A DNA stretch of 64,000 bases from Gemmatimonadales bacterium (GCA_050733215.1 JBOHSN010000006.1:4708-68707), one strand, 5' to 3'; shown: positions 5,314 to 61,434, counted from the first letter of the stretch. Made by a program: numbers and translations. Notes: generated by a model from the letters alone, not told the origin.

Positions 5314-6444
5314 GTGACTCAAGCGCCCCAATCTAGTCCTGCCCTCCGCCGGCTACCAGCCTGTGCGCTCGTGTGTTCGCTCGCGCTCGCGACACCGTTC
5401 GCGCGCGTGCTCGAGGCGCAGGACGACGCCCGCGCGACCCGTGACGCGCCGTTCGCGCGCGCCGCCGCCGGCACCGTGCTCGGCACGATGCGGAGCGGCG
5501 CGGAGGTGTCGGCCGGCCGCACGCGCGCCGGCTGGACCGAGGTGACGCTCGAGGGCTGGATCTACGAGCCGTCCGTGGGACGCGACCGGCGCGAGGGGTT
5601 CCAGATCGGCGTAGCGGCGCGGGGAGGGGAGAACCTGCGCGCGGAGCCGAACGGCCGTGTGCTCGCGCGGCTCCGCTATGGCGCGCTGCTCGAGCGCACC
5701 GGCGCCCGCGGCAACTGGGTGCGGGTGCGCCGCAAGGGTTGGGTTCCACGATCGGCCGTGGAGCGGGCGGTGGAGACGGCGGTGGCGCCTGCGGCGCGGC
5801 GGGAGAGGGCGGCAGAGGGCGGGAGAGGACCGGAAAGTGCGGCTGCTGCGACGGCCAGGCGCGACTCCACTCCGCCGGACACGTCCCGCCCTCTCCCGCC
5901 GTCTCCCGCCCCCTCCCGCCCTCCGGAGGAGTCCCGCATTCAGGTCACCCGATCGACCGCGCTCCACGCCGCTCCCGATGCCGCCGGGCTCGGCACCCTC
6001 CAGCCGGGGGTCGATGGCCGCGTGCTGGCGCGCGCGGGCGAGTGGGTGCGCGTGCAGCTCGAGGGCTGGGTGCGCGCAGCGGACGTCGGCCCGCCCGCCG
6101 ACGGCGCGATGGTGGGTGTCTCGGCGGCGGAGCTCCGGGCCGAGCCCGCGCGGTACGTCGGCCAGCTGGTCGAGTGGCGGCTCCAGTTCATTGCCGTTCA
6201 GGAGGCGGACGAGCTCCGGAGCGAACTCCCCGCCGGACAGCCCTTTCTGCTCACGCGGGGGCCACTGCCGGAGCCGGGCTTCGTCTATGTGATCCTGCCC
6301 CGCAACCAGGCGGAGCAGTTCCGCGCTCTTTCGGGGCTCCAGGAGCTGGTGGTCCACGTCAGGATCAGGGCGCCGCGCACGAAGTACCTGACCACCCCAG
6401 TGGTCGAGCTGAGCTCGGTGGTGAGTGGCCTGCCGGGGAAGTAG
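5314..6444 (+). CDS. Secreted hypothetical protein with two SH3-like (SH3_3) modules separated by a repeat-encoded linker
   Basis: An in-frame GTG at 5314 gives a signal-like N-terminus (LPACALVCSLALATPFARVLEAQ). GWTEVTLEGWI and GEWVRVQLEGWV are SH3b-like. The part of ORF 4822..6444 upstream of 5314 is antisense to gpmI. Confidence 0.6.
   Translation: MTQAPQSSPALRRLPACALVCSLALATPFARVLEAQDDARATRDAPFARAAAGTVLGTMRSGAEVSAGRTRAGWTEVTLEGWIYEPSVGRDRREGFQIGVAARGGENLRAEPNGRVLARLRYGALLERTGARGNWVRVRRKGWVPRSAVERAVETAVAPAARRERAAEGGRGPESAAAATARRDSTPPDTSRPLPPSPAPSRPPEESRIQVTRSTALHAAPDAAGLGTLQPGVDGRVLARAGEWVRVQLEGWVRAADVGPPADGAMVGVSAAELRAEPARYVGQLVEWRLQFIAVQEADELRSELPAGQPFLLTRGPLPEPGFVYVILPRNQAEQFRALSGLQELVVHVRIRAPRTKYLTTPVVELSSVVSGLPGK
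5799..5926. repeat. Inverted pair of decamer arrays (GCGGGAGAGG x3 / CCTCTCCCGC-like x3, 52-nt spacer) lying in frame inside a CDS
   Basis: 5799-5828 reads gcgggagagg gcggcagagg gcgggagagg. 5890-5919 reads cctctcccgc cgtctcccgc cccctcccgc. The same family occurs at 45621 and 53668. Confidence 0.85.
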
Positions 6445-6604
6445 GCTATCCGCTATCCGCTAACCGCTATCCGCTAACCGCTAACCGCTATCCGCTATCC
6501 GCTATCCGCTAACCGCTATCCGCTGTACCTTCCAACGAGTTACTGCGCGCGATGCCATCAACGCCCTGCGGATAGCGGATAGCCGATAGCGGATAGCGGA
6601 TAGC
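6445..6604. repeat. Inverted heptamer arrays: GCTAWCC x11 (6445-6521) and GGATAGC x5 (6570-6604), 43-48 nt spacer
   Basis: Direct reading. The arrays start 1 nt after the TAG stop at 6442-6444 and end 6 nt before the ATG at 6611. Confidence 0.95.
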
Positions 6605-6610
6605 CCCCAA

Positions 6611-6955
6611 ATGAACGACCTCCTCAGGCAACGCATTCTTCGCGCCCTGGACCGGCTCGATGACGAGCGGGCCTATCAGGCGTTGGACTACGTCGAGTTT
6701 CTCTCGAGCAGGTACGCGGCTCGCGCGCGGCCCTCCGGTCTGCTCGCGCAGCTCACCGAGGCCGTCGAAGATACGATGCGCGCAGGCAAGCTTCCGATCC
6801 AGGCGATCAGCGGCACCATGGGCGTGGTGGACAGCGCCGCCAAGGTCATGCGCGGCCTCGCCGCGGCGGGCCAGGCGGTGGTGGAGGAAGCGGTGAAGGC
6901 TGCGGCGCCGCCGCCACCGCCGCCACGCGCGCCGAGGGCCGATACGGCGAGCTGA
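6611..6955 (+). CDS. Hypothetical small protein (helical, with a Pro-rich tail)
   Basis: 114-aa ORF MNDLLRQRILRALDRLDDERAYQALDYVEFL... with a plausible amphipathic composition. I recognise no family and there is no obvious SD sequence. Confidence 0.45.
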   Translation: MNDLLRQRILRALDRLDDERAYQALDYVEFLSSRYAARARPSGLLAQLTEAVEDTMRAGKLPIQAISGTMGVVDSAAKVMRGLAAAGQAVVEEAVKAAAPPPPPPRAPRADTAS

Positions 6956-6966: not shown

Positions 6967-6987
6967 CACTCGACACTCGACACTCAT
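6967..6987. repeat. Heptamer tandem repeat CACTCGA x3 (single arm)
   Basis: cactcga cactcga cactcat, in the 47-nt gap before the permease gene. Confidence 0.8.
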
Positions 6988-8487: not shown

Positions 8488-8503
8488 CAACTGCAGCCGC
8501 GAA

Positions 8504-8570
8504 GGAACGCCAATGCACGCGAATGAGAGTCCATTCGCGCTCATTCGCGCAAATTCGCGGCTTCGGTTCC
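8504..8570. repeat. Hairpin of decamer repeats (CGCGAATGAG-type left arm; NNCATTCGCG x3 right arm)
   Basis: ggaacgccaatgcacgcgaatgagag / tccattcgcg ctcattcgcg caaattcgcg gcttcggttcc. The outer GGAAC...GTTCC ends also pair. Confidence 0.75.
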
Positions 8571-10988: not shown

Positions 10989-11098
10989 TTTCGCCCAGAC
11001 CGGCCCGTAACTTCCGAGATGGCACCCACGACACTCGGCCCGCCAGGCGCCCCGCCGGGGCACCTGCGGGCCGTCGCGCATCCGTCACACGTTCCAGC

Positions 11099-12559
11099 AT
11101 GAGCCGAATCCGCCAGGCCGTCGGGCTCACCTTCGACGACGTACTCCTCGTGCCGCGGCATTCGACCGTGCATCCGCGCGAGGTTTCCACCCTGAGCCGG
11201 CTCACCCGCTCCATCCCGCTCAACATCCCGCTCATCTCCGCCGCCATGGACACCGTCACCGAAGCCGAAATGGCCATCGCCATGGCGCGCGCCGGAGGCA
11301 TCGGGGTGATCCACAAGAACATGACGATCGACCGCCAGGCGGCCGAAGTCGATCGGGTGAAGCGCAGCGAGAGCGGGATGATCCTCAACCCGATCACGCT
11401 GGGGCCCGAGCGTCCGGTGCGCGAGGCCTACGCGCTGATGCGGCGGTTCAAGATCTCGGGTGTCCCCATCGTGGACGGCGAGGGCCGCCTCATCGGGATC
11501 ATCACCAACCGCGATCTCCAGTTCGAGCGGAATCTCGACCAGCCGATTCGCGACGCGATGACGAAGGAAAAGCTCGTGACCGCGCCGGTCGGCACCGATC
11601 TCGACGAGGCCGAGCGGATCCTCGCGCGCCACCGTATCGAGAAGCTGCCGGTGGTGGACGCCAGGGGCGTGCTCAAGGGCCTGATCACGGTCAAGGACAT
11701 CTTCAAGCGCCGCGAGCATCCTGACGCCAACAAGGACCAGCACGGCCGTCTCCGGGTCGCTGCCGCCGTGGGTGGCGCGCCCGATGCCGTCACCCGCGCG
11801 CGCGCCCTGGTCGGCGCCGGCGTGGATGTGCTCTGCGTGGACTCGGCACACGGGCACAGCGAAGCCGTGCTCCAGGCGCTCGACGCCATCAAGGAGAGCT
11901 TCCCCGACGTCGAAGTCATCGCGGGCAACGTCGCCACCGAGGCGGGAGCGCGCGAGCTGGTCCGGCGCGGGGCCGACGCCGTCAAGGTGGGCATCGGTCC
12001 GGGCAGCATCTGCACCACCCGCGTGGTCACCGGCGTGGGTGTTCCGCAGGTCACCGCCATCCAGGACGCCGGGCGCGGCGCGGGCGACGTGCCGATCATC
12101 GCCGACGGCGGCATCAAGTACTCCGGCGACGTCGTCAAGGCGATCGCCGCCGGGGCGTCCGCCGCGATGATGGGATCGATGCTCGCTGGCACCGAGGAGA
12201 GCCCCGGCGAGGCGGTGCTGGCCGAGGGCCGGCGCTTCAAGATGATCCGCGGCATGGGCAGCCTGTCGGCCATGCAGGACGGCAGCGCCGACCGGTACTT
12301 CCAGGAAGGCGAGATGACGCCCACCAAGATGGTGCCCGAGGGCATCGAGGGCCGCGTCCCCTACAAGGGCCCGGTGGCCGACGTGCTCTTCCAGATGGTG
12401 GGCGGGCTCCGGAGCGGGATGGGGTACTGCGGCGTCGCCAACCTCGCGGCGCTCCAGTGCGACGTCGAGATGATCCGCGTAACCGCGGCGGGCCTGCGCG
12501 AGTCACACCCGCACGACGTCACGATTACGCGCGAAGCACCGAACTACAGTAAGCAGTGA
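11099..12559 (+). CDS. guaB: IMP dehydrogenase
   Basis: [22 protein letters not shown]..., a CBS pair, the catalytic [11 protein letters not shown] loop and GGIKYSGD. The ATG at 11099 lies inside ORF 10985..12559. Confidence 0.95.
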
Positions 12560-12683
12560 GCAGTAAGCAGTAAGCTGGGGATTCCGGTGCCCGGGCAGAT
12601 CCCGTACGCCCCCGCTCACCGCTTACCGCTCACCGTTTACTGCTCACCGTTTACTGCTCACTGCTCACTGCTCACTGCTCACC
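12548..12683. repeat. Inverted heptamer arrays: AGTRAGC x4 (12548-12575) and GCTYACY/GTTTACT x10 (12614-12683), 38-nt spacer
   Basis: Direct reading. The left arm contains the guaB stop codon (TGA 12557-12559). The right arm ends 17 nt before the permease ATG. Confidence 0.95.
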
Positions 12684-16580: not shown

Positions 16581-16605
16581 TCGGCTCCTCACGATCCAGC
16601 CGGCG

Positions 16606-16743
16606 TTTTTCACCGCAGAGACGCAGAGGCGCAGAGATATCGCAGAGTATTCGTTGTGGTCTCATGTCAGGAGATCCGAATGCTTGGCGTGAGGCCACAA
16701 CAATTCAGCAGTTCTCTGCGTCTCCGCGCCTCTGCGTGAAAAA
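16606..16743. repeat. About 138-nt imperfect hairpin built from octamer repeats (CGCAGAGR x3-4 / YCTCYGCG x3) with an inner inverted repeat TTGTGGTCTCA...TGAGGCCACAA
   Basis: Left arm tttttcaccgcagagacgcagaggcgcagaga. Right arm ttctctgcgtctccgcgcctctgcgtgaaaaa. Inner arms at 16654-16664 and 16690-16700. Confidence 0.85.
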
Positions 16744-16760
16744 TCCGGCGAACAAGTCCG

Positions 16761-22280: not shown

Positions 22281-22406
22281 AACCACAGAGGACACAGAAA
22301 ACACCGAGAACCGGATTATCCGGCGGTCTCGGGCCGAGATACACGACCCTGAACGCGAGACCACAAACAAGATCGGTTCTCTGTGTTCTCTGTGTCCTCT
22401 GTGGTT
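22281..22406. repeat. 126-nt hairpin element: 33-nt arms (31/33 complementary) built from CACAGAGG-type octamers, with an inner inverted repeat GGTCTCG...CGAGACC
   Basis: Left arm aaccacagaggacacagaaaacaccgagaaccg (22281-22313). Right arm cggttctctgtgttctctgtgtcctctgtggtt (22374-22406). Confidence 0.9.
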
Positions 22407-22438: not shown

Positions 22439-23935
22439 ATGGCGATTGACAGCCTGAGCGAGTTCATCCGCGAGATCGAGAAGATCGGCGAGCTGGTACG
22501 GGTGACGCACCCGGCGAAGGCTCGCCTGGAGATTGCGGAGATTGCCGACCGGTGCATGAAGAGCGCCGGCGGCGGGCCGGCGCTCTTCTTCGAGCACGTG
22601 CTCCTCGACGATGGGCGGCGGAGCGCGTACCCTGTCGCCATCAACCTCTACGGCTCGATGCGGCGCATGTGTCTGGCGCTGGGGGTGAACGCGCTGGATG
22701 AGATCGGCGGGCGCATCAGCGAGCTGCTCGAGCTCAAGGTGCCGGAAGGACTCTTCGGCAAGCTCTCGATGCTCCCGCGTCTGGCCGAAGTCGCCAGGTT
22801 TCCGCCGCGGACCCGGAGCGGCAAGCCGCCGTGCCAGCACACGGTCACGCGGGGGGACAACGTGGATCTCTCCGTTATTCCGTTTCTCACGACCTGGCCC
22901 AAGGACGGCGGACCCTATATCACGCTGCCGATGGTGATCACAACCGATCCTGTGCGCGGCATCCGGAACGTCGGGATGTACCGCGTCCAGGTGCTCGGCC
23001 GGAATACGCTCGCGATGCACTGGCAACGCCACAAGGTGGGCGCGGCGCACTGGCGCGAGATGGCGGCGCGCGGCGAGAAGATGCCGGTGCTCATCGCGCT
23101 CGGCGGTGACCCCGCGAGCATCTACTCCGCCTCGGCGCCGCTCCCACCGACCATCGACGAGTTCATCTTCGCGGGCTTTCTCCGGCGCTCGCCGGTGGAG
23201 CTGGCGAAGGCGGTCACCTGCGACCTGGACGTGCCGGCCGAGGCGGACATCGTCCTCGAGGGATACATCGAGCCGGCCGAGCCGCTCGCGCTCGAGGGGC
23301 CGTTCGGCGACCACACGGGGTTCTACTCGCTCGCGGACTACTACCCCACGGTGCACGTCACGGCCGTCACGATGCGGCGGGATCCGGTGTACCCGGCCAC
23401 GCTGGTGGGCCGCCCGCCGATGGAGGACTACTACCTCGGTCACGCCACCGAGCGGATCTTTCTGCCGCTGCTCCGGCTCACCCTGCCCGAGATCGTTGAT
23501 TACCATATGCCCGCGCCCGGCATCTTCCACAATCTGGTGTTCGTCAGCATCGACAAGCAGTATCCCGGGCAGGCGTGGAAGGTGATGAACGCGCTGTGGG
23601 GCCAGGGGCTGATGTCGCTGGCCAAGGTGATCGTCGTCGTGGACAAGCAGGTGAACGTGCGCGATGCCGACGAGGCGTGGTGGGTGGCGCTCAACAACAT
23701 CGACCCCGAGCGCGATGTCCGCTTTACCATGGGCCCGATGGACGTGCTCGACCACTCGAGCCGGGCCTTCACCTATGGCAGCAAGATGGGGATCGACGCG
23801 ACGCGAAAGTGGAAGGAGGAGGGGTTCGACCGGGAGTGGCCGGAGGTGATCGCGATGGACGAGGCGACCAAGCGGCGCGTAGACGAGATCTGGCCACAGC
23901 TTGGGATCCGGTTGGAGGTGAGAGGTGAGAGGTGA
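22439..23935 (+). CDS. ubiD: UbiD-family (prenyl-FMN-dependent) decarboxylase
   Basis: 498 aa, colinear with UbiD/MqnL-type decarboxylases (...GGPYITLPMVITTDP..., ...FGDHTGFYS...). A ubiX gene is nearby. Confidence 0.9.
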   Translation: MAIDSLSEFIREIEKIGELVRVTHPAKARLEIAEIADRCMKSAGGGPALFFEHVLLDDGRRSAYPVAINLYGSMRRMCLALGVNALDEIGGRISELLELKVPEGLFGKLSMLPRLAEVARFPPRTRSGKPPCQHTVTRGDNVDLSVIPFLTTWPKDGGPYITLPMVITTDPVRGIRNVGMYRVQVLGRNTLAMHWQRHKVGAAHWREMAARGEKMPVLIALGGDPASIYSASAPLPPTIDEFIFAGFLRRSPVELAKAVTCDLDVPAEADIVLEGYIEPAEPLALEGPFGDHTGFYSLADYYPTVHVTAVTMRRDPVYPATLVGRPPMEDYYLGHATERIFLPLLRLTLPEIVDYHMPAPGIFHNLVFVSIDKQYPGQAWKVMNALWGQGLMSLAKVIVVVDKQVNVRDADEAWWVALNNIDPERDVRFTMGPMDVLDHSSRAFTYGSKMGIDATRKWKEEGFDREWPEVIAMDEATKRRVDEIWPQLGIRLEVRGER

Positions 23936-24014
23936 GAGGGAGTACCGAGGCGAGCTCACGAGCCCGACGCCTGCGCCGGAGCCCCCGCTCACGTCTCACC
24001 GCTCACGTCTCACC
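23917..24014. repeat. Inverted heptamer arrays: GGTGAGA x3 (23917-23937) and GCTCACG/TCTCACC x4 (23987-24014)
   Basis: Direct reading. The ubiD stop (TGA 23933) and the only in-frame start of ubiA (GTG 23925) both lie in the left arm. Confidence 0.95.
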
Positions 24015-24902
24015 GCCCGCGAAGGCCAGACGTTTGCCGGCGAGTCCCTCCTCGTCCGCTACGCCAACTTCGTCAAGCTGCCCCATACCCTCTTCGCCCT
24101 GCCGTTCGCGCTGCTCGGCCTGGTGGCGGCCTCGATGGAGGTGCCCGTAACGTGGCGCACCGTGCTCCTGGTGGTTCTCGCGTTCTCGGCGGCGCGCTGG
24201 GTGGCCATGGGCTTCAACCGGATCGCCGACCGGGAGTACGACGCGCGGAACCCGCGCACCCGGAATCGCGAGCTCCCGCGCGGCGCGCTCTCCCTGCCGC
24301 AGGCGTGGGCATCGATCATCCTGGCGGCGGCGCTGTTCGTGCTCGCGGCCGCGCTGCTCAACCGGCTCTGTCTGGCGCTGAGCCCGCTGGCGCTCGCCTG
24401 GGTGATGACCTACAGCTTCGCGAAGCGATTCACCTGGTGGCCGCATCTCTGGTTGGGCCTGAGCCTGGCCATCGCGCCGGTGGGCGGGTGGCTGGCCGTG
24501 ACCGGCGCCTGGAGCGAGCCGTGGTGGCTGCTGGCACCGATCACGGTGGCGGTGGCCACGTGGGTGGCCGGCTTCGACATCTTCTACGCCCTGCCCGACG
24601 AGGCGTTCGACCGGAGCGAGGGACTCCGGAGCGCCGTGGTGCGGCTCGGCGAGAGGCGCGGCATCCTCCTGGCGAAGGTGCTGCACGGGATCACGATCCC
24701 GGCTCTGGGGCTGTTCGGCTGGGCCGCCGGGTTCGGCCGGCTGTACTTCGCCGGCCTCCTCGTCGCGGCGGGCATTCTGATCTACGAGCACCGCCTGGTC
24801 CGGCCTGGTAACCTGACGCGCCTCGATGCGGCGTTCTTCACCATGAACGGTGTGATGAGCGTGACGGTCTTTCTGTTCGCGCTGGGGGATCGGCTGCTGT
24901 GA
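23925..24902 (+). CDS. ubiA: UbiA-family aromatic prenyltransferase (4-hydroxybenzoate polyprenyltransferase-like)
   Basis: Multi-TM protein with NRIADREYDARNPRTRNR (the NxxxDxxxD region). The first about 33 codons are repeat-derived. There is no other ATG/GTG/TTG before the conserved N-terminus (VRYANFVKLPHT). Confidence 0.8.
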   Translation: MRGEREYRGELTSPTPAPEPPLTSHRSRLTAREGQTFAGESLLVRYANFVKLPHTLFALPFALLGLVAASMEVPVTWRTVLLVVLAFSAARWVAMGFNRIADREYDARNPRTRNRELPRGALSLPQAWASIILAAALFVLAAALLNRLCLALSPLALAWVMTYSFAKRFTWWPHLWLGLSLAIAPVGGWLAVTGAWSEPWWLLAPITVAVATWVAGFDIFYALPDEAFDRSEGLRSAVVRLGERRGILLAKVLHGITIPALGLFGWAAGFGRLYFAGLLVAAGILIYEHRLVRPGNLTRLDAAFFTMNGVMSVTVFLFALGDRLL

Positions 24903-42333: not shown

Positions 42334-42400
42334 GGGCGGCTCACGGTTCGGGTATGCCCGGCTCTACGGGCCGGCATTGAGGCATGTTTCAGATTGAACG

Positions 42401-42422
42401 GTCGTCGGTCGTCGGTCGTCGG
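42401..42422. repeat. Heptamer tandem repeat GTCGTCG x3 (single arm, no stop codon in the unit)
   Basis: gtcgtcg gtcgtcg gtcgtcg g, in the 99-nt intergenic gap. Confidence 0.8.
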
Positions 42423-44785: not shown

Positions 44786-46180
44786 ATGTCCGGTACCCTG
44801 ATGATCAGCGTGTCGGGCATGCGTGGTCACGTCGGCACGGACCTCACGCCCGAGGTCGTCGCGCGCCACGCCGCGGCGCTCGGGGCGTGGGCGCGCATGC
44901 AGGGCCGTCCCCTGGTGGTGCTCGGCCGGGACGCCCGCACCAGCGGCCCGATGTTCGCGCACGCGGCGGCCGCCGGTCTCATGTCCGTCGGTGCCGACGT
45001 GATCGACCTGGGCATCGTCCCCACGCCGACCACGCAGCTCGCCGTAGAGCACCATCACGCCGGCGCCGGCCTCATCCTCACGGCCAGCCACAATCCGATC
45101 GAGTGGAACGCCCTCAAGCTCGTGGGCCCGGACGGCATCTTCCTCGACGCGGCGGCGGGCGCCGCGGTCCGGGCACTGGCCGATGCGGGCCCGGTACGAG
45201 CCGGCTGGGACGGCATCGGCCGGGTGCATGAAGATCCGGACGCGGTGGCCCGACATCTCGCCGCCATTCTCGCGCTGCCTGTGATCGACGTCGCAGCGAT
45301 CCGCGCGCGAGGCTTTCATGTGGCGCTCGACTGCGTGCGGGGGGCCGGAGGTGTCGCACTTCCGCCACTCCTCGAGCGACTCGGTGTCCGCGTGAGCGGC
45401 ATCCATCTGGAGGCCGACGGTCGCTTTCCCCATCCCCCCGAACCGGTCCCCGAGAATCTCGGCGACCTGGAACGGCTGGTGCGGGAGAGCGGGGCCGACC
45501 TGGGGCTCGCCGTGGACCCGGATGTGGACCGGCTCGCGCTGGTGGACGAAACCGGTACGGCCGTGGGCGAGGACTATACCCTGGCGCTCGCGGTGCGAGC
45601 GGTGCTTGGGCAGGGAAGCCGAGGGCGGGAGCGGGCGGGAGAGAGCGGGACAGGTGACGCTGCTCCCGCTGTCGTGGTCAATCTTTCTACCAGCCTGGTC
45701 GTGGAGGACGCGGCGCGGGACCACAACGCGCGCTTCGTGCGTGCGCCCGTCGGGGAGGCGAACGTCGCGCGGGCGATCCGGGACGAGGCCGCGCTTATCG
45801 GCGGGGAAGGCAACGGGGGGGTGATTCTCCCGGCGCTGCACATCGGCCGCGATGCACCCCTCGGCGTGGCCTTGATTTTGCACTATTTGGCCAAGGTTGG
45901 GGCATCGCTTTCGAGCGTCGTCGCTGCGTCGCCGCGCTACGTGATTCTGAAGGCGAAAGGGCCGCGCGGGCCCGAGCTGGGACCGCTGTACGATCGGCTC
46001 CGGCGGCGCTTCCCCGAAGCGGACGCGGACGCGCGGGACGGGTTGCGGCTGGCCTGGCGGGACCGATGGCTGCACGTGCGGCCCTCCGGCACCGAGCCGA
46101 TCGTCCGGCTGATCGCGGAAGCCCCGACGGCCGCCGAGGCGGAGGCCCTGGTCTCCGCCGCGCGCGAACCGCTGACCTGA
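44786..46180 (+). CDS. Phosphohexomutase (phosphoglucosamine/phosphomannomutase family)
   Basis: VSGMRG and the active-site TASHNP. Four-domain length. It lies immediately upstream of glmS, which suggests a GlmM-like role. Contains an apparent repeat-derived insertion at 45621-45673. Confidence 0.85.
   Translation: MSGTLMISVSGMRGHVGTDLTPEVVARHAAALGAWARMQGRPLVVLGRDARTSGPMFAHAAAAGLMSVGADVIDLGIVPTPTTQLAVEHHHAGAGLILTASHNPIEWNALKLVGPDGIFLDAAAGAAVRALADAGPVRAGWDGIGRVHEDPDAVARHLAAILALPVIDVAAIRARGFHVALDCVRGAGGVALPPLLERLGVRVSGIHLEADGRFPHPPEPVPENLGDLERLVRESGADLGLAVDPDVDRLALVDETGTAVGEDYTLALAVRAVLGQGSRGRERAGESGTGDAAPAVVVNLSTSLVVEDAARDHNARFVRAPVGEANVARAIRDEAALIGGEGNGGVILPALHIGRDAPLGVALILHYLAKVGASLSSVVAASPRYVILKAKGPRGPELGPLYDRLRRRFPEADADARDGLRLAWRDRWLHVRPSGTEPIVRLIAEAPTAAEAEALVSAAREPLT
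45621..45673. repeat. Short member of the GCGGGAG decamer family inside the phosphohexomutase CDS
   Basis: GCGGGAG at 45625, 45635 and 45645 (10-nt period), then the inverted unit CTCCCGC at 45663. It encodes ...SRGRERAGESGTGDAAP... Confidence 0.7.
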
Positions 46181-48103: not shown

Positions 48104-48121
48104 GCATCCCACCCGCGCCTC

Positions 48122-48508: not shown

Positions 48509-48531
48509 CGCGCCGGTGTCGGCGACGACCG

Positions 48532-48791: not shown

Positions 48792-48825
48792 CCAGGCGCA
48801 ACGGTCCCTCGCGTCGGCGAGCGCG

Positions 48826-49971: not shown

Positions 49972-50052
49972 GAACGGCCTCCGCCAGTGATCCTTGCCGG
50001 GAAGCTCTCCGGGACGCGTCAAGACGGAGTCAGGCCGATTGTCACATCGGGG

Positions 50053-50949: not shown

Positions 50950-50961
50950 GCTGGACGATAA

Positions 50962-51056
50962 AACCACAAAGGCAGGAAGGACACAAAGGCCTCATATTCA
51001 TCCCCGCGACGCCGAGGTCTCCGGGCAGCCTTCGGGCCCTTCGTGCCTTTGTGGTT
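50962..51056. repeat. 95-nt hairpin element with perfect 13-bp outer arms AACCACAAAGGCA / TGCCTTTGTGGTT (same family as 22281)
   Basis: Direct reading. It lies in the divergent promoter region between the MBL hydrolase and dtd. Internal GGACACAAAGG resembles the octamers of 22281. Confidence 0.8.
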
Positions 51057-51080
51057 CAACCCCCTTGTCCGAGGATCTGG

Positions 51081-51524
51081 ATGCGCGTCGTGCTCCAGCG
51101 GGTCTCGCGGGCTTCCGTCACCATCGATGGCCACATCGCCGGCGCCATCGAACGCGGTTTCTGCCTGCTGGTCGGCTTCACCCACACCGACACGACGGCG
51201 GAGGGCGACTGGATGGCGGAGAAGATCGCGGGACTTCGCCTCTTCCCCGACGCCGCGGGCAAAATGAACGTCGGGTTGGCCGACGCCGGCGGAGCGCTGC
51301 TCGTGGTCTCGCAGTTCACGCTGTATGGCGACGCGGCCAAGGGACGGCGCCCTTCATTCATCGACGCCGCGCGTCCCGAAGTGGCGATTCCGCTCTACGA
51401 GCGCTTCATCGGCGCGCTTCGCGCGCGAGGCCTGAAGGTCGAAACCGGCGAGTTCGGAGCGATGATGGACGTGGCGCTCGTCAACGAAGGGCCGGTGACG
51501 CTCATTCTCGAGCGGAACGCGTGA
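51081..51524 (+). CDS. dtd: D-aminoacyl-tRNA deacylase
   Basis: MRVVLQRV..., SQFTLYGD and the GPVT C-terminal motif. GAGGA SD at 51071. Confidence 0.9.
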
Positions 51525-52165
51525 GCGCCACCCGGCTGGTGCTGGCGTCGTCGTCCCCCCGGCGGCGGCAGCTGCTCGAGATGCTGGGGATTCCCGTCGA
51601 CGTGCGGCCCCCGCACATCAACGAAGTGCGCGCAGCGGAGGAGACGCCGCGGGAGTACGTGGAGCGGCTCGCGGTCGAGAAAGCGGGTGCCGTGCCGGGC
51701 GAGCTCGTTCTGGCGGCGGACACTACCGTGGTCGTGGACGCGGAGGTGCTCGAGAAACCGGTGGATGAGGCCGACGCGTTGCGAATGCTCGAGCGCCTGG
51801 CGGGGCGCACGCACGAGGTCATCACCGCCATTGCGCTCCGCGCGCCCGGCGGGACCCGTCAGGCCACCGACGTCACGCGGGTGACGTTCCGTGCGGCCGA
51901 CCGGAGGCTGCTTCGCGCCTACGTCGCCACCGGCGAGCCGATGGACAAGGCGGGCGCGTATGGTATCCAGGGCTATGGCGCGGCGCTGGTCGAGCGGATC
52001 GAGGGCGACTTCTTCGGCGTGATGGGGCTGCCGGTGCGGCTGGTGCTCGAGCTCCTGGAGCAGGCGGGGCATCCGTACCGCTTCGGGATGAGCGGATGGC
52101 CCGATGGTCCATCGATCGTCACCACCGAACCCGGAACACCTCCACCGTCTGCGTCTTTCCCCTGA
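51521..52165 (+). CDS. maf: Maf-family nucleoside triphosphate pyrophosphatase
   Basis: [14 protein letters not shown]..., [10 protein letters not shown]. The GTG overlaps the dtd stop (GTGA). The C-terminal tail overlaps the convergent cyclase gene by 47 nt. Confidence 0.85.
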
Positions 52166-53654: not shown

Positions 53655-53667
53655 AGGGGAAAAGTAG

Positions 53668-53792
53668 GCGGGAGAGGGCGGGAGGGGGCGGGAGGGGGAG
53701 GGAGAGGGAGCCGGATCGGGCGGCTCCGCTGTTCACGCCGGGGGCGTTCCTGCCTCTCCCGCCCTCTCCCGCCCTCTTTCGCCCTCTCCCGC
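53668..53792. repeat. Inverted decamer arrays GCGGGAGRGG x4 (53668-53707) and CCTCTYYCGC x4 (53753-53792), 42-45 nt spacer
   Basis: Direct reading. The right arm encodes the last about 19 codons of trpE. The left arm ends 14 nt upstream of the cyclase start codon. Confidence 0.95.
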
Positions 53793-55268
53793 CGCAAGCG
53801 CCAGTGCAAGCAACACCGCCCGCGCCTTCGCCTCGGTCTCGCGGAGCTCGGCCGCCGGGTCGGAGTCGGCCACGATGCCGGCGCCGGCCTGCACCCAGGC
53901 CCGTCCGTTCCGCATGACGCAGGTGCGCAGCGCGATCGCGGTATCGAGTACCTGCGCCCCCCAGCCGACGTATCCCACGGCGCCCGCGTACGGTCCACGG
54001 CGCACCGGCTCGAGCTCGTCGATGATCTCCATCGCGCGGACCTTGGGCGCGCCGCTCACCGTGCCGGCGGGGAAGCAGGCCGCGAGCGCGGCCACGGCGT
54101 CGAGCTCCGGCCGCAGCCGGCCGCGCACCTCGCTGACGAGGTGCATGACGTGCGAGTACCGTTCGATCGTCATGAACTCCGTGAGGTGCACCGAGCCGAA
54201 CTCGGCGACCCGGCCCACGTCGTTCCGCCCCAGGTCCACCAGCATCAGATGCTCGGCCCGCTCCTTCGGGTCGGCTTCCAGCTCCGCGGCGAGCGCAGCG
54301 TCGCGCTCGGGCGTGTCGCCCCGCAGCCGGGTGCCGGCGATCGGCCGGAGCGTGACCTCCCGGTCCTCCACCCGCACGAGAATCTCGGGCGAGCTGCCGA
54401 CGATATGGACGTCGTCGAAGTGCAGGCAGTAGAGATACGGCGCCGGGTTGAGCGCGCGGAGGTAACGGTATGTCAGAAACGGATCGGGGGCGGGGAGATC
54501 CAGCCGGCGGGAGAGCACCGTCTGAAAGGTGTCGCCCGCGGCAATGTACTCCTTGATCCGGCGTACGTCGCGCTCGAAACGGGTGTCGGTGTAGGGCGAC
54601 GTTACGGACGGGACAGCGGCCGGCTCCATCGGCAGCGGCCGCAGTATGGCGGGACCGGCGAGACGCGCCAGCCAATCGTCGATGCGGGCTTCGGCAGTTT
54701 CGTGCAGCCGGGCCAGCGTCGCCTCGTCCGCGCCGTCCGGCACATCGACGTTCGCGATCACGGTCGCGCGATTGTACAGATTGTCGAGCACGAGGAGCGT
54801 GTCGGCCACCATGAGGAGCGCGTCCGGCAGATCGCGGTCGTCCGGCGGGGGTGACGGCAACGACTCGAGGGTGCGCACGATGTCGTACCCGAGGTAGCCC
54901 ACGGCGCCGCCGGTGAAGCGCGGCAGCCCGGGCACCTCCACCGGGGCGTAGCGCCGCATCGCGCGGCCGAGGTGCTCGAGCGGGGCGATGTCCTCGGCCT
55001 CGAGCTGCCAGCCCGCCGCCGCGGTCCACCGCTCGCAGCGTCGCCCGCGGTAGCGGAACACCTCGCGCGGATCGGTGGCCAGAAACGTGTAGCGGGCCCA
55101 TCGCTCGCCCCCCTCGAGCGACTCGAGCAGGAAGCCGAAGGGGCCCCGGTGCAGTTTCGCGAATGCCGCGACCGGCGTATCACCGTCGAGCAGCACCTGA
55201 CGGGTGACCGGCACGATGGCGCCGCCCGCCCGGGCGCCGGCCCTGATCGCCTCCAGGCCGACGCTCAC
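53733..55268 (-). CDS. trpE: Anthranilate synthase component I
   Basis: 511 aa and colinear with TrpE (...LESLEGGERWARY..., ...GAPKVRAMEII..., GAGIVADS). The C-terminal tail AAGEGERGRERAGEAGTPPA is repeat-derived. Confidence 0.9.
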   Translation of the reverse strand: MSVGLEAIRAGARAGGAIVPVTRQVLLDGDTPVAAFAKLHRGPFGFLLESLEGGERWARYTFLATDPREVFRYRGRRCERWTAAAGWQLEAEDIAPLEHLGRAMRRYAPVEVPGLPRFTGGAVGYLGYDIVRTLESLPSPPPDDRDLPDALLMVADTLLVLDNLYNRATVIANVDVPDGADEATLARLHETAEARIDDWLARLAGPAILRPLPMEPAAVPSVTSPYTDTRFERDVRRIKEYIAAGDTFQTVLSRRLDLPAPDPFLTYRYLRALNPAPYLYCLHFDDVHIVGSSPEILVRVEDREVTLRPIAGTRLRGDTPERDAALAAELEADPKERAEHLMLVDLGRNDVGRVAEFGSVHLTEFMTIERYSHVMHLVSEVRGRLRPELDAVAALAACFPAGTVSGAPKVRAMEIIDELEPVRRGPYAGAVGYVGWGAQVLDTAIALRTCVMRNGRAWVQAGAGIVADSDPAAELRETEAKARAVLLALALAAGEGERGRERAGEAGTPPA

Positions 55269-55846
55269 CGCGGCGCCCCGACCACGAAACTGCCGGGCCC
55301 GGGCAGCGCCGCGCGAAGGTTGTCCGACGCCGGCCGGGTGGAGACGAGAAACCGGATGCCGCCGTCGGGCAGCAGCTGCCCGACGGCCAACACCGCCTCG
55401 AACGCGGCATCGCTGCCGTACTTCCGCGTGGCCTCGATGGGAGCCGAGAAGTGGACCGGGTACTTGAAGGTCACGGTGGCGCCCGCGATGGGCGTGGCGC
55501 TGCTCTCCACATCCACGCCGTAGACGCCGGGCCGGGGGCGGATGGCCAGGCGCACCGAGTCGGATGTGGGCGCCGCGCTGTCGAACGCTTCCGCCGGCAG
55601 CGTCACTTCGGCAAAGATGAGGTTGTCGGGCGGACCATGGCGGAGCACAACGACCCGCCGGGCGCCCCGCGACACGCGCAGCGTGGTATCGTCCGGGGGC
55701 ACGCCAGCGACCTCGAGCAGGTAGACCTGGTCGAGGGTGTACCTGAGCGCCGGGTTGCCGGTGGTGTTGGAGGGCCTCGGGCCCGGCGCGGCGGGGTTGG
55801 GGGAAGCGCAGGCGGCGATTGCGAGCAGGGCGAGGACCGGGGACAT
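55265..55846 (-). CDS. Hypothetical lipoprotein
   Basis: MSPVLALLAIAACAS lipobox. The 21 upstream codons of the ORF (..SPLTAHHLPLTAH..) are a repeat translation. Its stop overlaps the trpE GTG (GTGA). Confidence 0.5.
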   Translation of the reverse strand: MSPVLALLAIAACASPNPAAPGPRPSNTTGNPALRYTLDQVYLLEVAGVPPDDTTLRVSRGARRVVVLRHGPPDNLIFAEVTLPAEAFDSAAPTSDSVRLAIRPRPGVYGVDVESSATPIAGATVTFKYPVHFSAPIEATRKYGSDAAFEAVLAVGQLLPDGGIRFLVSTRPASDNLRAALPGPGSFVVGAPR

Positions 55847-55861
55847 TCCAAACCAGTGCGC

Positions 55862-56008
55862 GGTGAGAGGCAAATGGTGAGCGGTGAGCGGTGAGCGGAT
55901 CGGAGGCATGATGACTCAGTGCGTTGTCCGGGGGTTGGCAGTCTGGACCGTCCCGCTTCTCGTGTACTGCTTACCGCTCACCGCTCACCGCTCACCGCTT
56001 ACCGCCCA
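55862..56008. repeat. Inverted heptamer arrays: GGTGAGM x4 (55862-55868, 55876-55896) and CCGCTYA-type x5-6 (55967-56008), flanking the start codon of the plus-strand gene
   Basis: Direct reading. The SD (GGAGG 55902) and ATGATG (55908-55913) lie in the loop. The right arm is translated as LPLTAHRSPLTAQ. Confidence 0.95.
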
Positions 56009-57983: not shown

Positions 57984-57994
57984 CCGGTCCGCCG

Positions 57995-58018
57995 CTGCCC
58001 GCCTGCGCGCCTGCCCGT
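57995..58018. repeat. Octamer tandem repeat CTGCSCGY x3 (single arm)
   Basis: ctgcccgc ctgcgcgc ctgcccgt, 12 nt after the TAG stop at 57981-57983. Confidence 0.6.
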
Positions 58019-58064
58019 TACTTTTCAGCGTTCCCTCTGACTTCCCAATTCCCTCGAGCGGCGA

Positions 58065-60323
58065 ATGCAGTTCACCGATGAATGGCTCGTGCCCACCGTT
58101 GAGACGCTCGTTCCCGGCGACGTGCTCGCGGGCCTCCGTCTCGCCGACGGGCCACCCTCCTCGCTCTGGGAAACGCTGGTTCAGCGCAAGCTCGCCACGG
58201 ATGCGCAGATCCTGAATGCGGTGGCGACGCGCTTCCGCTTCGGGGTGGCGGAGCTGGCCGGGGTCGATCCCGACGTGAAGGATGCGGTGCCCGAGCAGCT
58301 GGTCCGCAAGTACAACGTCGTGCCTATCCGGGTGACCGAGTCGCTGCTGGAGATCGGAACCGCCAATCCGTTCGATCTTGACGCCGAGAAGGCGCTCGCG
58401 TTCGCGACCGGCCGCGAGGTCCGCCTGCTGCTCGCCGCGCCCGCGCGAATCCGCGAGAAGCTGGACGAGCTCTACCGCGGCGAGGATGCGATCAACCGCT
58501 TCCTCGACAGCATGGGCGGCGACTTCGAGGTCAAGGAGGTCAAGGAGGAGGACGACGCGGCCGTCACCGCGGAGGAGGCGAGCCAGCGGCCCATCATCCG
58601 CCTCGTCGACACGATGCTCGCCGACGGGGTGACGAGCCGGGCGAGCGACATCCACGTGGAGCCGGCCGAGGGCGCCGTGGTGGTGCGCTACCGTATCGAC
58701 GGCGTGCTCCGCCAGGTCATGAAGATCCCGCGCTCCGCGGGACTGCCGCTCATCTCGCGCATCAAGATCATGTCCGGCCTCGACATCGCCGATCGCCTGC
58801 GCCCGCAGGATGGCCGCGCCCGCGTGTCGGTGAACGGCGATCCGATCGACCTGCGCATCTCCACGCTCCCGGCCTCGCTGGGCGAGAAGGTCGTCATCCG
58901 GATCCTGAGCCAGAAAGCGACGGTGCTGTCGCTGGACGGTCTGGGGCTCAATCCGCAGGAGGCCGAGTCCATCGCGCGCCTGCTGCGGCACAAGGAGGGC
59001 ATCATCCTGGTGACGGGCCCCACCGGCTCGGGCAAGACGACGACGCTCTACTCCGCGCTCCGGCTGATTCAGAGCGAGGGCGTCAACATCGTCACGGTCG
59101 AAGACCCCGTCGAGTACCGGCTGGGCCAGAACATCGTGCAGGTGCAGGTGCACGAGAAGGCCGGCCTCACCTTCGCGTCCGCGCTCCGCTCGATCCTCCG
59201 GCAGGATCCCGACGTGGTGCTCATCGGCGAGGTGCGCGACCAGGAGACCGCGCAGATCGCGCTGCAGGCCTCGCTCACCGGCCACCTGGTCCTGTCCACG
59301 CTGCACACCAACGACGCACCGAACTCGGTCACCCGTCTGCTCGACATGGGCATGGAGGCGTACAAGATCGCCTCGGCGCTGCGCGGCATCGTGGCACAGC
59401 GGCTGATGCGGCGGCTCTGCGTCCATTGCAAGGAGCCCGGCGGCGACGGGACGCCGGAGCGTGTCGCCCGCCTGCTGCCCGCGGGGACCAAGCTCTTCCG
59501 GGCGGTCGGCTGTCCGGAATGCGCGCAGACCGGCTATCGCGGCCGTTTCAGCATCGTGGAGGTGCTCACGATGACGCCCGCGATCGAGCGGGCGATCGGG
59601 GCCGGTGCCACGGCCGACGTGCTCGCCGAGATGGCCCGGGACCAGGGCATGCGCTCGCTCTGGGAGAGCGGCCTCCAGCACCTGGTGGCCGGCGACACGA
59701 CCGTGGAAGAATTGCTCCGCGTCACCGACGTTCCCGCCGAGGTCGTGCCGGAGCGGGCGAGCGCGCCACGGCGTCCGGCGCCGGAGCCGAAGCGCGGTGG
59801 GAGGGCCGCCGCCGCGCCGCCTGCGACCCCGGCTCCGGCCAGCACACCGCCTCAGCCCGCGTCGGCGCCGTCGGTCGATTTCTCCATGGAGATGGACCTG
59901 CTCGACGACGCGCCGCCCGGCTCGGCCGCCGGCGCTGAGCGGAGGCGCGGCATCGTCGTGTTGCTGGTGGACGACGAGGACGATCTCCGGCGGGTCATGC
60001 GCGACCTGCTGGAGCGCGAAGGCTACTCGGTCCAGGAGGCGCGCGACGGCGTGCAGGCGCTCGACCAGGTGGACCGGCACGCGCCGGACGTCATTGTGCT
60101 CGACCTCAACCTGCCGGGGCTCGACGGCTACGGCGTCCTGTCCCAGCTCCGCTCCCGGAATGCCACCCGCAACATTCCGGTCATCGTACTCACCGCGAAG
60201 GGCGACGAGGAAAACGAGGTGCGTGTCTTCGAGCTGGGCGCGGACGACTTCCTGAGCAAGCCGTTCCGCGCCCGCGCGCTGCCCGCGCGCCTCGAAGCGG
60301 TGCTCGGCCGCCGCGCCCGATGA
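58065..60323 (+). CDS. GspE/PilB-family secretion ATPase with an N-terminal T2SSE_N domain and a C-terminal CheY-like receiver domain
   Basis: T2SSE_N-like aa 1-150. Walker A GPTGSGKTTT, Asp/His boxes, and the tetracysteine motif CVHC...CPEC. REC aa 629-752 (59949-60320): LLVDDEDD, VIVLDLNLPGLDG, VLTAKG, SKPF. Confidence 0.85.
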   Translation: MQFTDEWLVPTVETLVPGDVLAGLRLADGPPSSLWETLVQRKLATDAQILNAVATRFRFGVAELAGVDPDVKDAVPEQLVRKYNVVPIRVTESLLEIGTANPFDLDAEKALAFATGREVRLLLAAPARIREKLDELYRGEDAINRFLDSMGGDFEVKEVKEEDDAAVTAEEASQRPIIRLVDTMLADGVTSRASDIHVEPAEGAVVVRYRIDGVLRQVMKIPRSAGLPLISRIKIMSGLDIADRLRPQDGRARVSVNGDPIDLRISTLPASLGEKVVIRILSQKATVLSLDGLGLNPQEAESIARLLRHKEGIILVTGPTGSGKTTTLYSALRLIQSEGVNIVTVEDPVEYRLGQNIVQVQVHEKAGLTFASALRSILRQDPDVVLIGEVRDQETAQIALQASLTGHLVLSTLHTNDAPNSVTRLLDMGMEAYKIASALRGIVAQRLMRRLCVHCKEPGGDGTPERVARLLPAGTKLFRAVGCPECAQTGYRGRFSIVEVLTMTPAIERAIGAGATADVLAEMARDQGMRSLWESGLQHLVAGDTTVEELLRVTDVPAEVVPERASAPRRPAPEPKRGGRAAAAPPATPAPASTPPQPASAPSVDFSMEMDLLDDAPPGSAAGAERRRGIVVLLVDDEDDLRRVMRDLLEREGYSVQEARDGVQALDQVDRHAPDVIVLDLNLPGLDGYGVLSQLRSRNATRNIPVIVLTAKGDEENEVRVFELGADDFLSKPFRARALPARLEAVLGRRAR

Positions 60324-61423
60324 CCGAATCGCTCGCGGACGCGAGCCCGGCCATCGAGCTGGTGAAGCCCGCGGTCCGGGGACAGCCGGCGTACACGCTC
60401 GTTCCGCGCCCGTCCCGCCGCAAACTGAATCAGAACGAGAGTCCGTGGGACGTGCCGGAGGCGCTCAAGCGCGAGATCATCGAGCGCGCGATGGCGCTGC
60501 CGTGGAACCGCTACCCGGAGTTCGTTCCGTCCGAGCTGCTCCAGCGGCTCGCGGCGGCGCACGCGTGGCACCCCGACGGGATCCTGGTCGGCAACGGCTC
60601 CAACGAGCTGATCCAGGCGGTGCTCGCCACCACGCTCTCGCCCGGCGAAGCCGTCGTGGCGCCGTCGCCGACGTTCTCGCTCTACCGCCTGCTGACCAAC
60701 GTGTTCGACGGCCGCTACGTGCCGGTGGCGCTGGGCGGGGATTTCCGGTACGACGTTGATTCGCTGATCAAGGCGGCCGTGCGGGAGCGCGCCCGGGTCG
60801 TGGTGCTCAACTCGCCGAACAACCCCACCGGTAGCACGCTGCCGCCCGACGGCGTGGAGCGTGTGCTCGAGGCGACCGACGCGCTGGTGCTGTGCGACGA
60901 GGCGTATCAGGACTTCGGTGGCCCCACCGCCGTGCCGCTGCTGCCGTCGTCCCCGCGAGTCGTGGTCCTCCGCACGTTCTCCAAGGCGTTCGGTCTCGCG
61001 GGGCTCCGCTTCGGCTACGCGCTGGCGCATCCTTCGCTGGCGCGGGAGATCGCCAAGGGCAAGCTGCCGTACAACGTGAACGCCATCACGCTCGCGGCCG
61101 CGGCGATGCTGATGGAGCACGCGGAGCTCCGCACCGAACGGATCCGCTCCCTCGTCGCGACGCGGGATCGCACGGTGGATCGCCTCCGCGCGCTCCGGGG
61201 CATCAGGGTGTACCCGACCGCCGCCAACTTTGTGCTCCTCCGCTGCCAGGGCGTGCCGGCGCGCGATGTCTTCCGGCGGCTGCTGGACGAGCACGGCATT
61301 CTCGTGCGCGATGTGTCCAGCGGGAGCGAGCTCCAGGAGTGCCTGCGGATCTCCATCGGCACGGAGGAGGACATGGACGCGGTCGCCGCGGCGCTGGAGC
61401 AGATCGTCGGCGGTGAGCGGTGA
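60320..61423 (+). CDS. hisC: Histidinol-phosphate aminotransferase
   Basis: LNQNESP, NPNNPTG and the PLP lysine region FSKAFGLAGLRFGY. The ATG overlaps the upstream stop (ATGA). The stop lies inside a heptamer array. Confidence 0.9.
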   Translation: MTESLADASPAIELVKPAVRGQPAYTLVPRPSRRKLNQNESPWDVPEALKREIIERAMALPWNRYPEFVPSELLQRLAAAHAWHPDGILVGNGSNELIQAVLATTLSPGEAVVAPSPTFSLYRLLTNVFDGRYVPVALGGDFRYDVDSLIKAAVRERARVVVLNSPNNPTGSTLPPDGVERVLEATDALVLCDEAYQDFGGPTAVPLLPSSPRVVVLRTFSKAFGLAGLRFGYALAHPSLAREIAKGKLPYNVNAITLAAAAMLMEHAELRTERIRSLVATRDRTVDRLRALRGIRVYPTAANFVLLRCQGVPARDVFRRLLDEHGILVRDVSSGSELQECLRISIGTEEDMDAVAAALEQIVGGER

Positions 61424-61434
61424 GCGGTGAGCGG
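61412..61434. repeat. Heptamer tandem repeat GGTGAGC x3 (single arm) containing the hisC stop
   Basis: ggtgagc ggtgagc ggtgagc gg. TGA occurs at 61414, 61421 and 61428, so in all three frames. Confidence 0.95.

Follow-up and report, generated by a model that had tools for sequence, protein, structure and literature searches.

We analysed a 64,000-nt stretch of DNA from a Gemmatimonadales bacterium (GCA_050733215.1, JBOHSN010000006.1:4708-68707; hereafter "the window") and found it to be populated by modules in which a tandem array of short repeat units is followed, after a spacer, by an array of the reverse complement. We think it somewhat probable that these modules are hairpin-forming microsatellites, i.e. 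lineage-specific and hypervariable intergenic repeats of a part of the Gemmatimonadales, which act as intercistronic stem-loops in the manner of REP elements. The modules are real and not assembly artefacts, and at orthologous sites their unit sequence shifts between lineages while the two arms stay complementary. They also have the hallmarks of simple-sequence repeats of the variable-number tandem repeat (VNTR) kind: short units stand head to tail, and the copy number varies amid constant flanks.

A preliminary description of the window, made from the sequence alone, had listed eleven paired loci and four single arrays. Tandem Repeats Finder (TRF) detected an array at every one of them, the four single arrays included (2.7-11.4 copies of 7-10-nt units, 73-100% matches), and 24 of the 25 longest inverted repeats of the window (within 150 nt) were these modules. 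The paired loci were folded as RNA and compared with 200 dinucleotide shuffles. Ten of the eleven paired loci proved to be strong hairpins (-42 to -101 kcal/mol, z -4.1 to -10.4, 0 of 200 shuffles equally stable). The eleventh, at 45621, was marginal (6 of 200 shuffles as good) and lies in frame within a phosphosugar mutase gene; its listing as a paired hairpin was not upheld. Taken by themselves, the single arrays were unstructured (z +0.4 to +1.8). Arms are not always tidy: those at 8504 and 50962 repeat only loosely, the latter locus standing as a good hairpin with weakly repetitive arms, and arm lengths are often very unequal (11 versus 5 units at 6445, 4 versus 10 at 12547). Further degenerate candidates at 24900-25000 and 29735-29830 folded no better than shuffles and were discarded.

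The preliminary description had itself named three grounds for doubt: that the arrays might be no commoner than in shuffled sequence of equal composition, that they might be assembly artefacts, or that they might belong to a described repeat family. None of the three held. In 100 dinucleotide shuffles of the whole window (G+C 66-73% along its length), arrays of period 7, 8, 10 or 14 averaged 2.5 with a maximum of 8, against 20 observed, and exact 12-nt inverted repeats within 200 nt averaged 6.4 with a maximum of 15, against 75 observed. The same architecture recurred across dozens of independent assemblies of metagenome-assembled genomes (MAGs), which argues against artefacts. Rfam gave no match at gathering thresholds; at E<=1 all matches on modules were sub-threshold ones to eukaryotic miRNA precursors, that is, generic hairpins. 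A search for tRNA and tmRNA found none. The grouping of the units into families was borne out, the 64 kb holding at least six mutually unrelated units, which are 7, 8, 9 and 10 nt long. The claim that unit lengths are never multiples of three is wrong at 22281, where the unit measures 9 nt. Only the decamer family carries G-quadruplex (G4) motifs, which lie in the decamer arms.

For comparison we used a conserved 114-residue protein encoded at 6611-6955 of the window, which has 1467 homologues, the named ones being labelled "Gemmatimonadales bacterium". Scanning a genome collection with this protein gave 80 loci, nearly all from Gemmatimonadales MAGs; several of them sit on 0.2-3.5 Mb contigs whose names suggest long reads. 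The comparative set comprised the window and 81 related loci (82 sequences, 1.215 Mb, 90.6% coding), with genes called by a codon-usage score trained on Pfam-confirmed genes. A second assembly of essentially the same organism as the window (GCA_973835775.1) was recovered as well. One contig of this assembly (L085) ends at window-equivalent position 53631, 36 nt before the 53667 decamer hairpin, and a related short contig (L083) starts inside a GCTATCC array. The modules thus appear to break short-read assemblies.

Across the 82 sequences period 7 was the commonest, with 80 arrays that reach 2.8 copies or more. Of the period 7/14 arrays, 70 were intergenic, 7 lay at a gene boundary and 16 were genic, so that the intergenic-versus-genic comparison suggested in the preliminary description came out clearly in favour of non-coding DNA (77 intergenic or at a boundary versus 16 genic). 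Period 8/16 arrays were intergenic in 31 cases and genic in 16, and arrays with a period that is a multiple of three in 19 and 123 cases, respectively. Among the intergenic arrays of period 7, 8, 10, 14, 16 or 20, 74 of 115 (64%) had a reverse-complement partner within 250 nt, versus 0 of 115 in a control in which the partner was reversed without complementing; 5 of 38 genic arrays had such a partner. Of 51 modules, 41 have the purine-rich arm in front and 5 the pyrimidine-rich one; the purine-first arrangement reads identically on either strand. In the window alone nine of ten modules, all at independent sites, are purine-first, and only the one at 6445 is pyrimidine-first. Between co-directional genes the median distance from the upstream stop codon to the stem was 2.5 nt (interquartile range -4 to +7), and that from the end of the stem to the next start codon was 23 nt (11.5 to 33.5). 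The trait is restricted to some clades: arrays occur in 34 of the 82 sequences and are missing from the other 48, and they are most numerous in the window and its nearest relatives.

Two gaps that could be followed through the relatives illustrate how the modules evolve. The gap between the gene for an SH3-domain protein and that for the 114-residue protein measures about 2-20 nt in most relatives that keep the gene order. A GCTATCC/GGATAGC module occupies it in the window, L005 and L001, which are the closest relatives of one another by their longer proteins; in L003, L004 and L002 it holds none. The more distant L041 carries a module of GCTATCC/GGATAGC units in the same gap, with an unrelated spacer. 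Beside the ATG of L002 and L076 stands a lone ATAGCC-type unit, which resembles a seed.

In the gap between the genes for IMP dehydrogenase (IMPDH) and a permease, 17 lineages have heptamer hairpins of differing units. Within each, the arms match (AGTGAGC/GCTCACT, GGTGAAC/GTTCACC, AGTGAAA/TTTTCAC, GTGAAGC/GCTTCAC, GGTAAGC/GCTCACC), and the arm-pairing score was 15.4 within a lineage versus 9.7 between lineages. The lineages that hold these modules are only about 65-70% identical in the 90 N-terminal residues of the permease. The remaining lineages show a plain GC hairpin, decayed remnants or nothing.

Copy number moves faster than the flanks. Over 21.4 kb the window and the second assembly are 99.97% identical, differing by two single-nucleotide polymorphisms and two indels, one of 6 nt in a hexamer array and one of 49 nt at 6445; a further 12.5 kb are identical. 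The 49 nt equal seven units of the 6445 heptamer arm (4 units in L082/L084 versus 11 in the window, with flanks 99.97-100% identical), a difference that lies between 28-nt direct repeats and could be an assembly collapse. In a 95%-identical relative the copy number differs at two arrays, and L083 has four copies of CACTCGA versus two in the window. The spacers of different modules are unrelated: an all-against-all BLAST of array-masked modules gave only four matching pairs, three of which stem from a nested REP-like palindrome common to three octamer modules, while the fourth is an orthologous module pair.

One strand of the unit holds a stop codon (TGA, TAA or TAG) in 34 of 37 heptamer modules, and the arm that bears it is mostly the 5' one. 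When units are read in register, the stop stays at its position in 88-89% of them. Of the single-base variants of the consensus stop, 31 of 52 are still stops, when even a four-fold bias towards transitions would predict about 14 (binomial p 1.6e-6; TGA>TAA 18, TGA>TGG 1, TGA>CGA 3), retention is somewhat stronger on the sense strand (19:10 versus 12:11), and TAA is enriched in the sense-strand 5' arm relative to the mirror arm (43:62 versus 24:88, p 0.002); since these counts come from non-independent units and orthologous sites, they are suggestive only. Stopless decamer arrays are read as protein, in the C-terminal tail of TrpE, a loop of the mutase and the SH3 linker. Mimicry of Shine-Dalgarno and anti-Shine-Dalgarno sequences (GGTGA versus the 16S tail) was considered as the theme of the heptamers and set aside in favour of a stop codon, which suits a larger share of the units (GGATAGC, GAGCTGA/GAGCTAA, TGATGAC).

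From these patterns we infer that the modules would originate in place, from a short seed at a gene boundary, often in the stop-codon region or just upstream of a start codon. Replication slippage would make the arms grow and shrink, and either selection for pairing or template switching from arm to arm may keep them complementary. Once transcribed, a module would fold away as a long stem with the upstream stop codon at its foot and the next ribosome-binding site and start codon about 23 nt beyond. A REP/BIME-like role is proposed here because of the published effects of REP arrays on mRNA and termination in E. coli, where REP325 stabilises the upstream mRNA of its operon and partly terminates transcription (bioRxiv 10.64898/2026.03.23.713779). 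By analogy, the intercistronic stem-loop would protect the cistron ahead of it against 3'-exonucleases and may attenuate read-through in part. Among the functions floated in the preliminary description, that of an mRNA stabiliser or insulator seems the most plausible. As the heptamers combine a stop codon with a period that is not a multiple of three, three units would close all three reading frames at a gene end.

A number of observations weigh against such a role. Sense RNA was the more stable in 25 modules and antisense RNA in 19 (p 0.74), and at the IMPDH site it is in fact the sense strand that folds less well, since TAA in its 5' arm is set against TCAC in its 3' arm. Folding energies thus give no positive evidence that the sense RNA stem is under selection. 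Enrichment by gap type was not significant (co-directional 11.8%, divergent 15.6%, convergent 4.8%), and similar rates in all gap types are expected of a process that fills any non-coding DNA. The tight spacing to stop and start codons is trivial, as the ancestral gaps measured a few to a few tens of nt. Unequal arms are frequent and variant units in one arm are not mirrored in the other. More than half of the related loci are arrayless, so any function must be dispensable. To these points come the possible collapse behind the 49-nt indel and the non-independence of the stop counts.

Much of this speaks for the main rival explanation, which we regard as a serious possibility though not a likely one: the modules could be neutral or mildly selfish by-products of slippage and quasi-palindrome template switching. 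They would then accumulate wherever they do no harm, in intergenic DNA and in disordered protein linkers, and stop-bearing units would simply be those tolerated at gene ends. The difference in copy number between near-identical assemblies fits this account, as do the patchy presence even in close relatives (L003 and L004 lack the 6445 module), the 48 arrayless sequences, the unequal arms, the folding without sense/antisense asymmetry, the lack of a preferred gap type and the absorption of stopless arrays into open reading frames (ORFs). It is less easily reconciled with the IMPDH-to-permease site, where modules persist across lineages as divergent as the permease N-termini indicate, with arms that co-vary, and where arrayless lineages bear a plain hairpin. 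Nor does it readily account for the strong purine-first bias (41 to 5), or for the unit variants that keep a stop and the TAA enrichment in the sense 5' arm, some of which could still reflect filtering rather than function.

Beyond the REP-like stem-loop that we favour, a more specific and doubtful proposal is that the heptamer modules could be under selection as a cis-element in two parts, typical of high-GC Gemmatimonadales, consisting of a three-frame stop cassette and a partner arm and tuned by slippage. The stop cassette would halt read-through or frameshifted ribosomes, arriving from either direction, before they enter the stem. The partner arm would fold the extra RNA away and so keep the stop codon near the next start. 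Slippage would tune the stem length and thereby create heritable, fast-adjusting expression differences among operon neighbours. If true, the three-frame cassette would matter where off-frame stops are rare, the logic of contingency loci would extend to housekeeping operons, and the element would represent a regulatory class so far undescribed.

We consider it improbable that the paired arrays serve at the DNA level, be it as sites bound by some abundant protein of an architectural or regulatory kind or as cruciform-forming sites. Their architecture matches that of the "putative global regulator binding sites" annotated in Geobacter (PMC2700814), their structure does not differ between the strands, and modules also occur between divergent genes, where promoters lie. 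On the other hand, at least six unrelated units of four lengths coexist in one genome, and units change between lineages at the same site, which argues against a single sequence-specific protein; IHF/HU binding in Geobacter is itself no more than a proposal.

Still less probable is the mobile-element role offered in the preliminary description, by which the modules would be non-autonomous elements resembling MITEs (miniature transposable elements with inverted repeats) or REPINs, with tandem repeats as terminal inverted repeats. The arms do look like inverted termini, presence and absence vary at orthologous sites, and the modules at 22281 and 50962 share AACCACARAGG...CCTYTGTGGTT ends. However, the spacers are unrelated, save for the one orthologous pair and the REP-like palindrome nested in three octamer modules, filled and empty SH3-to-114-residue sites showed no target-site duplications on comparison, and orthologous positions keep lineage-specific units while empty sites bear single-unit seeds. 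None of the 19 flanking proteins of the window with a Pfam match has a transposase domain.

The terminator role, equally improbable, would make the modules factor-independent terminators or attenuators of an unconventional type without a U-tract, and the very stable GC-rich stems directly after stop codons invite it, but a T-rich stretch follows only 8 of 44 modules with no T-run at the other 36, the next start codon comes about 23 nt on in apparent operons, convergent gaps are not enriched, and a terminator scan of 44000-63999 flagged none of the six listed loci there. The organism does not lack ordinary terminators: a canonical and apparently bidirectional one lies at 48074-48099 between the convergent genes for GlmS and a PIN-domain protein (11-13-bp GC stem, 4-nt loop, T5, A-rich opposite side, z -5.6). 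With unrelated spacers and mostly no T-run, the modules are neither MITEs nor canonical terminators.

Repeat loci of the window. Positions count from its first nucleotide; fold energies and z-scores refer to the RNA of each locus, and I numbers designate inverted repeats.
Position	Architecture	Setting	TRF arrays	Fold (kcal/mol)	z	Remarks
5798..5923	inverted decamer arrays GGCGGGAGAG x3 ... CTCTCCCGCC x4	linker of SH3-domain protein ORF	5798/5884	-89.1	-4.1	I10; G4 motif in purine arm
6445..6604	GCTATCC/GCTAACC x11, 43-nt spacer, GCGGATA x5	entire gap from stop codon 6442-6444 to next ATG 6611	6445 (x11.4), 6568 (x5.3)	-80.9	-8.3	
6967..6985 (+)	pyrimidine-rich heptamers in a single array, CACTCGA x2.7	just upstream of permease start codon				unstructured
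8489..8568	loosely decameric arms CGCGAATGAR / YTCATTCGCG, 6-nt loop	downstream of permease stop codon	8498/8532 (10-mers, just 2.8-2.9 copies, 73-88% matches)	-41.7	-5.3	I19
12547..12683	CAGTAAG/CAGTGAG x4, 36-nt spacer, GCTCACC/GCTTACC/GCTCACT x10	5' arm includes IMPDH stop codon; 3' end 17 nt before permease ATG	12547 (CAGTAAG x4.1), 12612 (CCGCTCA x10.3)	-61	-6.7	orthologous modules with co-varying units in relatives
16598..16746	near-perfect 149-nt hairpin, octamer arms CGCAGAGR x3-4 / YCTCTGCG, inner second stem	between ParA-like and SAM-hydroxide adenosyltransferase genes	16614 (8-mer x3)	-83.9	-10.4	
22281..22406	9-nt repeat arms, ACACAGAGG-type / TTCTCTGTG x3.1	between UbiE-like and UbiD genes	22376 (9-mer)	-71.3	-9.6	I13
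23915..24016	GAGGTGA x3.6 (holds UbiD stop codon), spacer, CCGCTCACGTCTCA x2.3	upstream of UbiA	23915/23985	-58.3	-4.2	
42399..42422	single heptamer array CGGTCGT x3.4 (sense strand GACGACC)	between two minus-strand genes				unstructured
45621..45654 (+)	in-frame decamer array GAGGGCGGGA x3.4, weak partner	phosphosugar mutase ORF 44786-46180			-2.15	marginal hairpin
50962..51056	hairpin AACCACAAAGG... / ...CCTTTGTGGTT, weakly repetitive arms	between divergent metallo-beta-lactamase-fold and D-Tyr-tRNA deacylase genes		-46.1	-5.8	I23
53667..53793	inverted decamers GGCGGGAGAG x4.2 / CCTCTCCCGC x4.1	between TrpE and cyclase gene, both minus strand	53667/53753	-100.9	-7.8	I1; G4 motif
55857..56008	GGTGAGC x3.3, ~70-nt spacer, GCTCACC/GCTTACC x5.3	between divergent genes	55876/55969	-86.1	-6.0	I9
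57995..58017 (+)	single octamer array CTGCCCGC x2.9	after stop codon				unstructured
61410..61434 (+)	single heptamer array GCGGTGA x3.6	across HisC stop codon to HisB ribosome-binding site				unstructured

Three of the loci reach into proteins. The inverted arrays and the hairpin at 5799 stand as described, and they are placed in the coding linker between two SH3-like halves. The corresponding linker of L001 is similar to that of the window; that the repeats are a discrete insertion into the SH3 protein was rejected, as the linker measures 70-74 residues in all six lineages in which it could be delimited. At 45621 the array is translated as a loop insertion of about 14 residues, QGSRGRERAGESGTGDAAP, at the start of domain III of the mutase. 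Alignment to solved structures places the insertion exactly at the array, and the two closest structures do not have it. The last ~20 residues of TrpE (...AAGEGERGRERAGEAGTPPA*; tail ...GEGERGRERAGEAG...) are encoded by the TrpE-proximal decamer arm (53733-53800, minus strand) and extend past the end of the chorismate-binding domain.

Some loci have counterparts or details of their own. L041 has a CGCAGAGA/CCTCTGCG module (19999-20057) at a matching distance from the gene for the 114-residue protein, a candidate counterpart of the 16598 module. Relatives carry single arrays, mostly pyrimidine-rich and of the CTCAC type, just downstream of the same gene, at the position that matches the 6967 array. 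At 55900-56010 the spacer of the 55857 module contains an ATG after GGAGG (GGAGGCATGATG...); from this ATG the 3' arm would encode part of a signal-peptide-like N-terminus (MMTQCVVRGLAVWTVPLLVYCLPLTAHRSPLTAQ...), and the true start of the 699-residue gene is uncertain. A hexamer array, ACTCGC x4.3, lies at a gene boundary at 19041-19066 and differs by one unit (6 nt) in GCA_973835775.1. Upstream of IMPDH, a plain GC-rich hairpin, GGCCCGCCAGGCGCCCCGCCGGGGCACCTGCGGGCC, occupies 11037-11072, with a similar one at the same place in L001; folded with its flanks it was not significant against shuffles (z -1.4).

The genes of the window are largely housekeeping genes, among them IMP dehydrogenase, UbiE/UbiD/UbiA, phosphosugar mutase, GlmS, TrpE, HisC/HisB, Dtd, Maf and amino-acid permeases. 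A minus-strand ORF at 33628-40008 (2126 residues) has a strong coding signal. Next to the terminator, at 48122-48774 on the minus strand, a PIN-domain gene (128 residues; Pfam match taken from the identical locus L085) follows an 80-residue gene and resembles a toxin-antitoxin pair. An exact-protein look-up of the ParA-like ORF returned no record, probably because of a differing choice of start codon.

The preliminary description had called the architecture undescribed in a high-GC genome. Xanthomonas is a high-GC genus. It provides a precedent (PMC4692102), and pairs have been described in Geobacter metallireducens as well (PMC2700814). Xanthomonas genomes hold about 185 intergenic GGGAATC arrays, with 70-75 inverted pairs in convergent orientation (Rehm et al. 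2015, PMC4692102). As here, these are tandem heptamers (2-26 units), about 90% intergenic, near the end of the upstream ORF and mostly between co-directional genes, and their intergenic positions are kept in related species while length and sequence vary widely (PMC4692102). The convergent orientation would mean that the G-rich arm comes first on either strand, which equals the purine-first arrangement here. Xanthomonas differs in having a single unit family, without a stop codon, which was studied for its G-quadruplex potential, whereas we find at least six families, with a stop codon in most heptamers.

G. metallireducens has 53 annotated pairs of sites on opposite strands, 24, 21 and 8 of them in classes 1-3 (Aklujkar et al. 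2009, PMC2700814). Its sites consist of 3-5 repeats of 8, ~8-9 or 7 nt (GTTGCTYN, TCTCCGTS[Y], MTYCTGA) at variable distance from each other (PMC2700814). They too are intergenic (e.g. between proB and proA), several unit lengths coexist in the genome and one heptamer contains TGA (PMC2700814). In contrast to the modules described here, each class has a consensus fixed genome-wide, and the sites were read as targets of IHF/HU-type regulators, without comparative or copy-number data (PMC2700814). The modules of the window share with these inverted array pairs the arrays on opposite strands, the intergenic bias and the conserved position with variable length and sequence. They have no single genome-wide consensus unit, a difference of degree and not of architecture.

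Heterocystous cyanobacteria carry the STRR heptamers CCCCAGT, TTGGTCA and CCCCAAT, none of which is matched by the units here (GGTGAGC, AGTAAGC, GGATAGC and others). Intergenic heptamers near start codons have been reported from cyanobacteria and Beggiatoaceae (MacGregor 2015, PMC4679880; Nostoc, bioRxiv 10.1101/2022.06.06.494920). Like our arrays, the STRR and TAACTGA repeats are tandem intergenic heptamers, often lying a few nt upstream of starts; TAACTGA contains two stop codons, and proposals for a role point to translation or to a post-transcriptional effect. The single pyrimidine-rich array at 6967 and its orthologues resemble this class. The STRR/TAACTGA units are AT-rich, however, occur in other taxa and are almost always direct and unpaired, with one indirect repeat among 170 sets in Beggiatoa.

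The likely functional analogues are the REP/BIME/REPIN elements of Enterobacteria and Pseudomonas, abundant intergenic hairpins in or at the ends of operons that are not classical terminators. Each such family derives from a single conserved palindrome of 20-40 nt that a RAYT transposase spreads, whereas our modules lack a conserved palindrome, differ in units and spacers, have tandem repeats for arms and seem to originate in place. A REP-like palindrome family proper, TGTCAYCCYGAGCGNAGCGARGG...CCYTCGCTNCGCTCRGGRTGACA (TGTCAYCCYGAGCG...), exists in intergenic gaps of related Gemmatimonadales loci (~52 half-sites, e.g. L013 1470-1560, L055 7335-7420 and L019 14250-14375) and is absent from the window. 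Three octamer modules carry it nested in their loop, and in several lineages it sits just downstream of the gene for the 114-residue protein, where the window has the CACTCGA array. Arrays and this family were not correlated across lineages, and mutual exclusion was unsupported. MITEs differ from the modules, which have no conserved internal sequence and no target-site duplication at the compared sites. Intrinsic terminators share the GC-rich stem-loop just after a stop codon, with stems of 5-12 bp versus 25-45 bp here.

An excess of intergenic heptamer repeats in bacteria was reported in 2007 (as cited in ref. 33 of PMC4692102) and is still unexplained, and the inverted pairs of Xanthomonas and Geobacter are without an established function. 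A literature search returned no description of such repeats for Gemmatimonadota. New here are the lineage, the variety of units per genome, the prevalence and retention of stop codons in heptamers, and the comparative evidence for co-evolving arms and an origin in place. The arrays also bear on the annotation of these abundant soil bacteria, as two contigs of related assemblies end at or beside an array and stopless arrays are read into ORFs. The comparison also makes three hypotheses testable: the three-frame stop cassette, the REP-like stem-loop and a slippage-tuned operon stoichiometry. To the two earlier systems the Gemmatimonadales add many related genomes in which the same sites are filled, empty or decayed, in which arms co-evolve, modules appear to be born from local seeds, copy number outpaces flanking substitutions and heptamers retain their stops.

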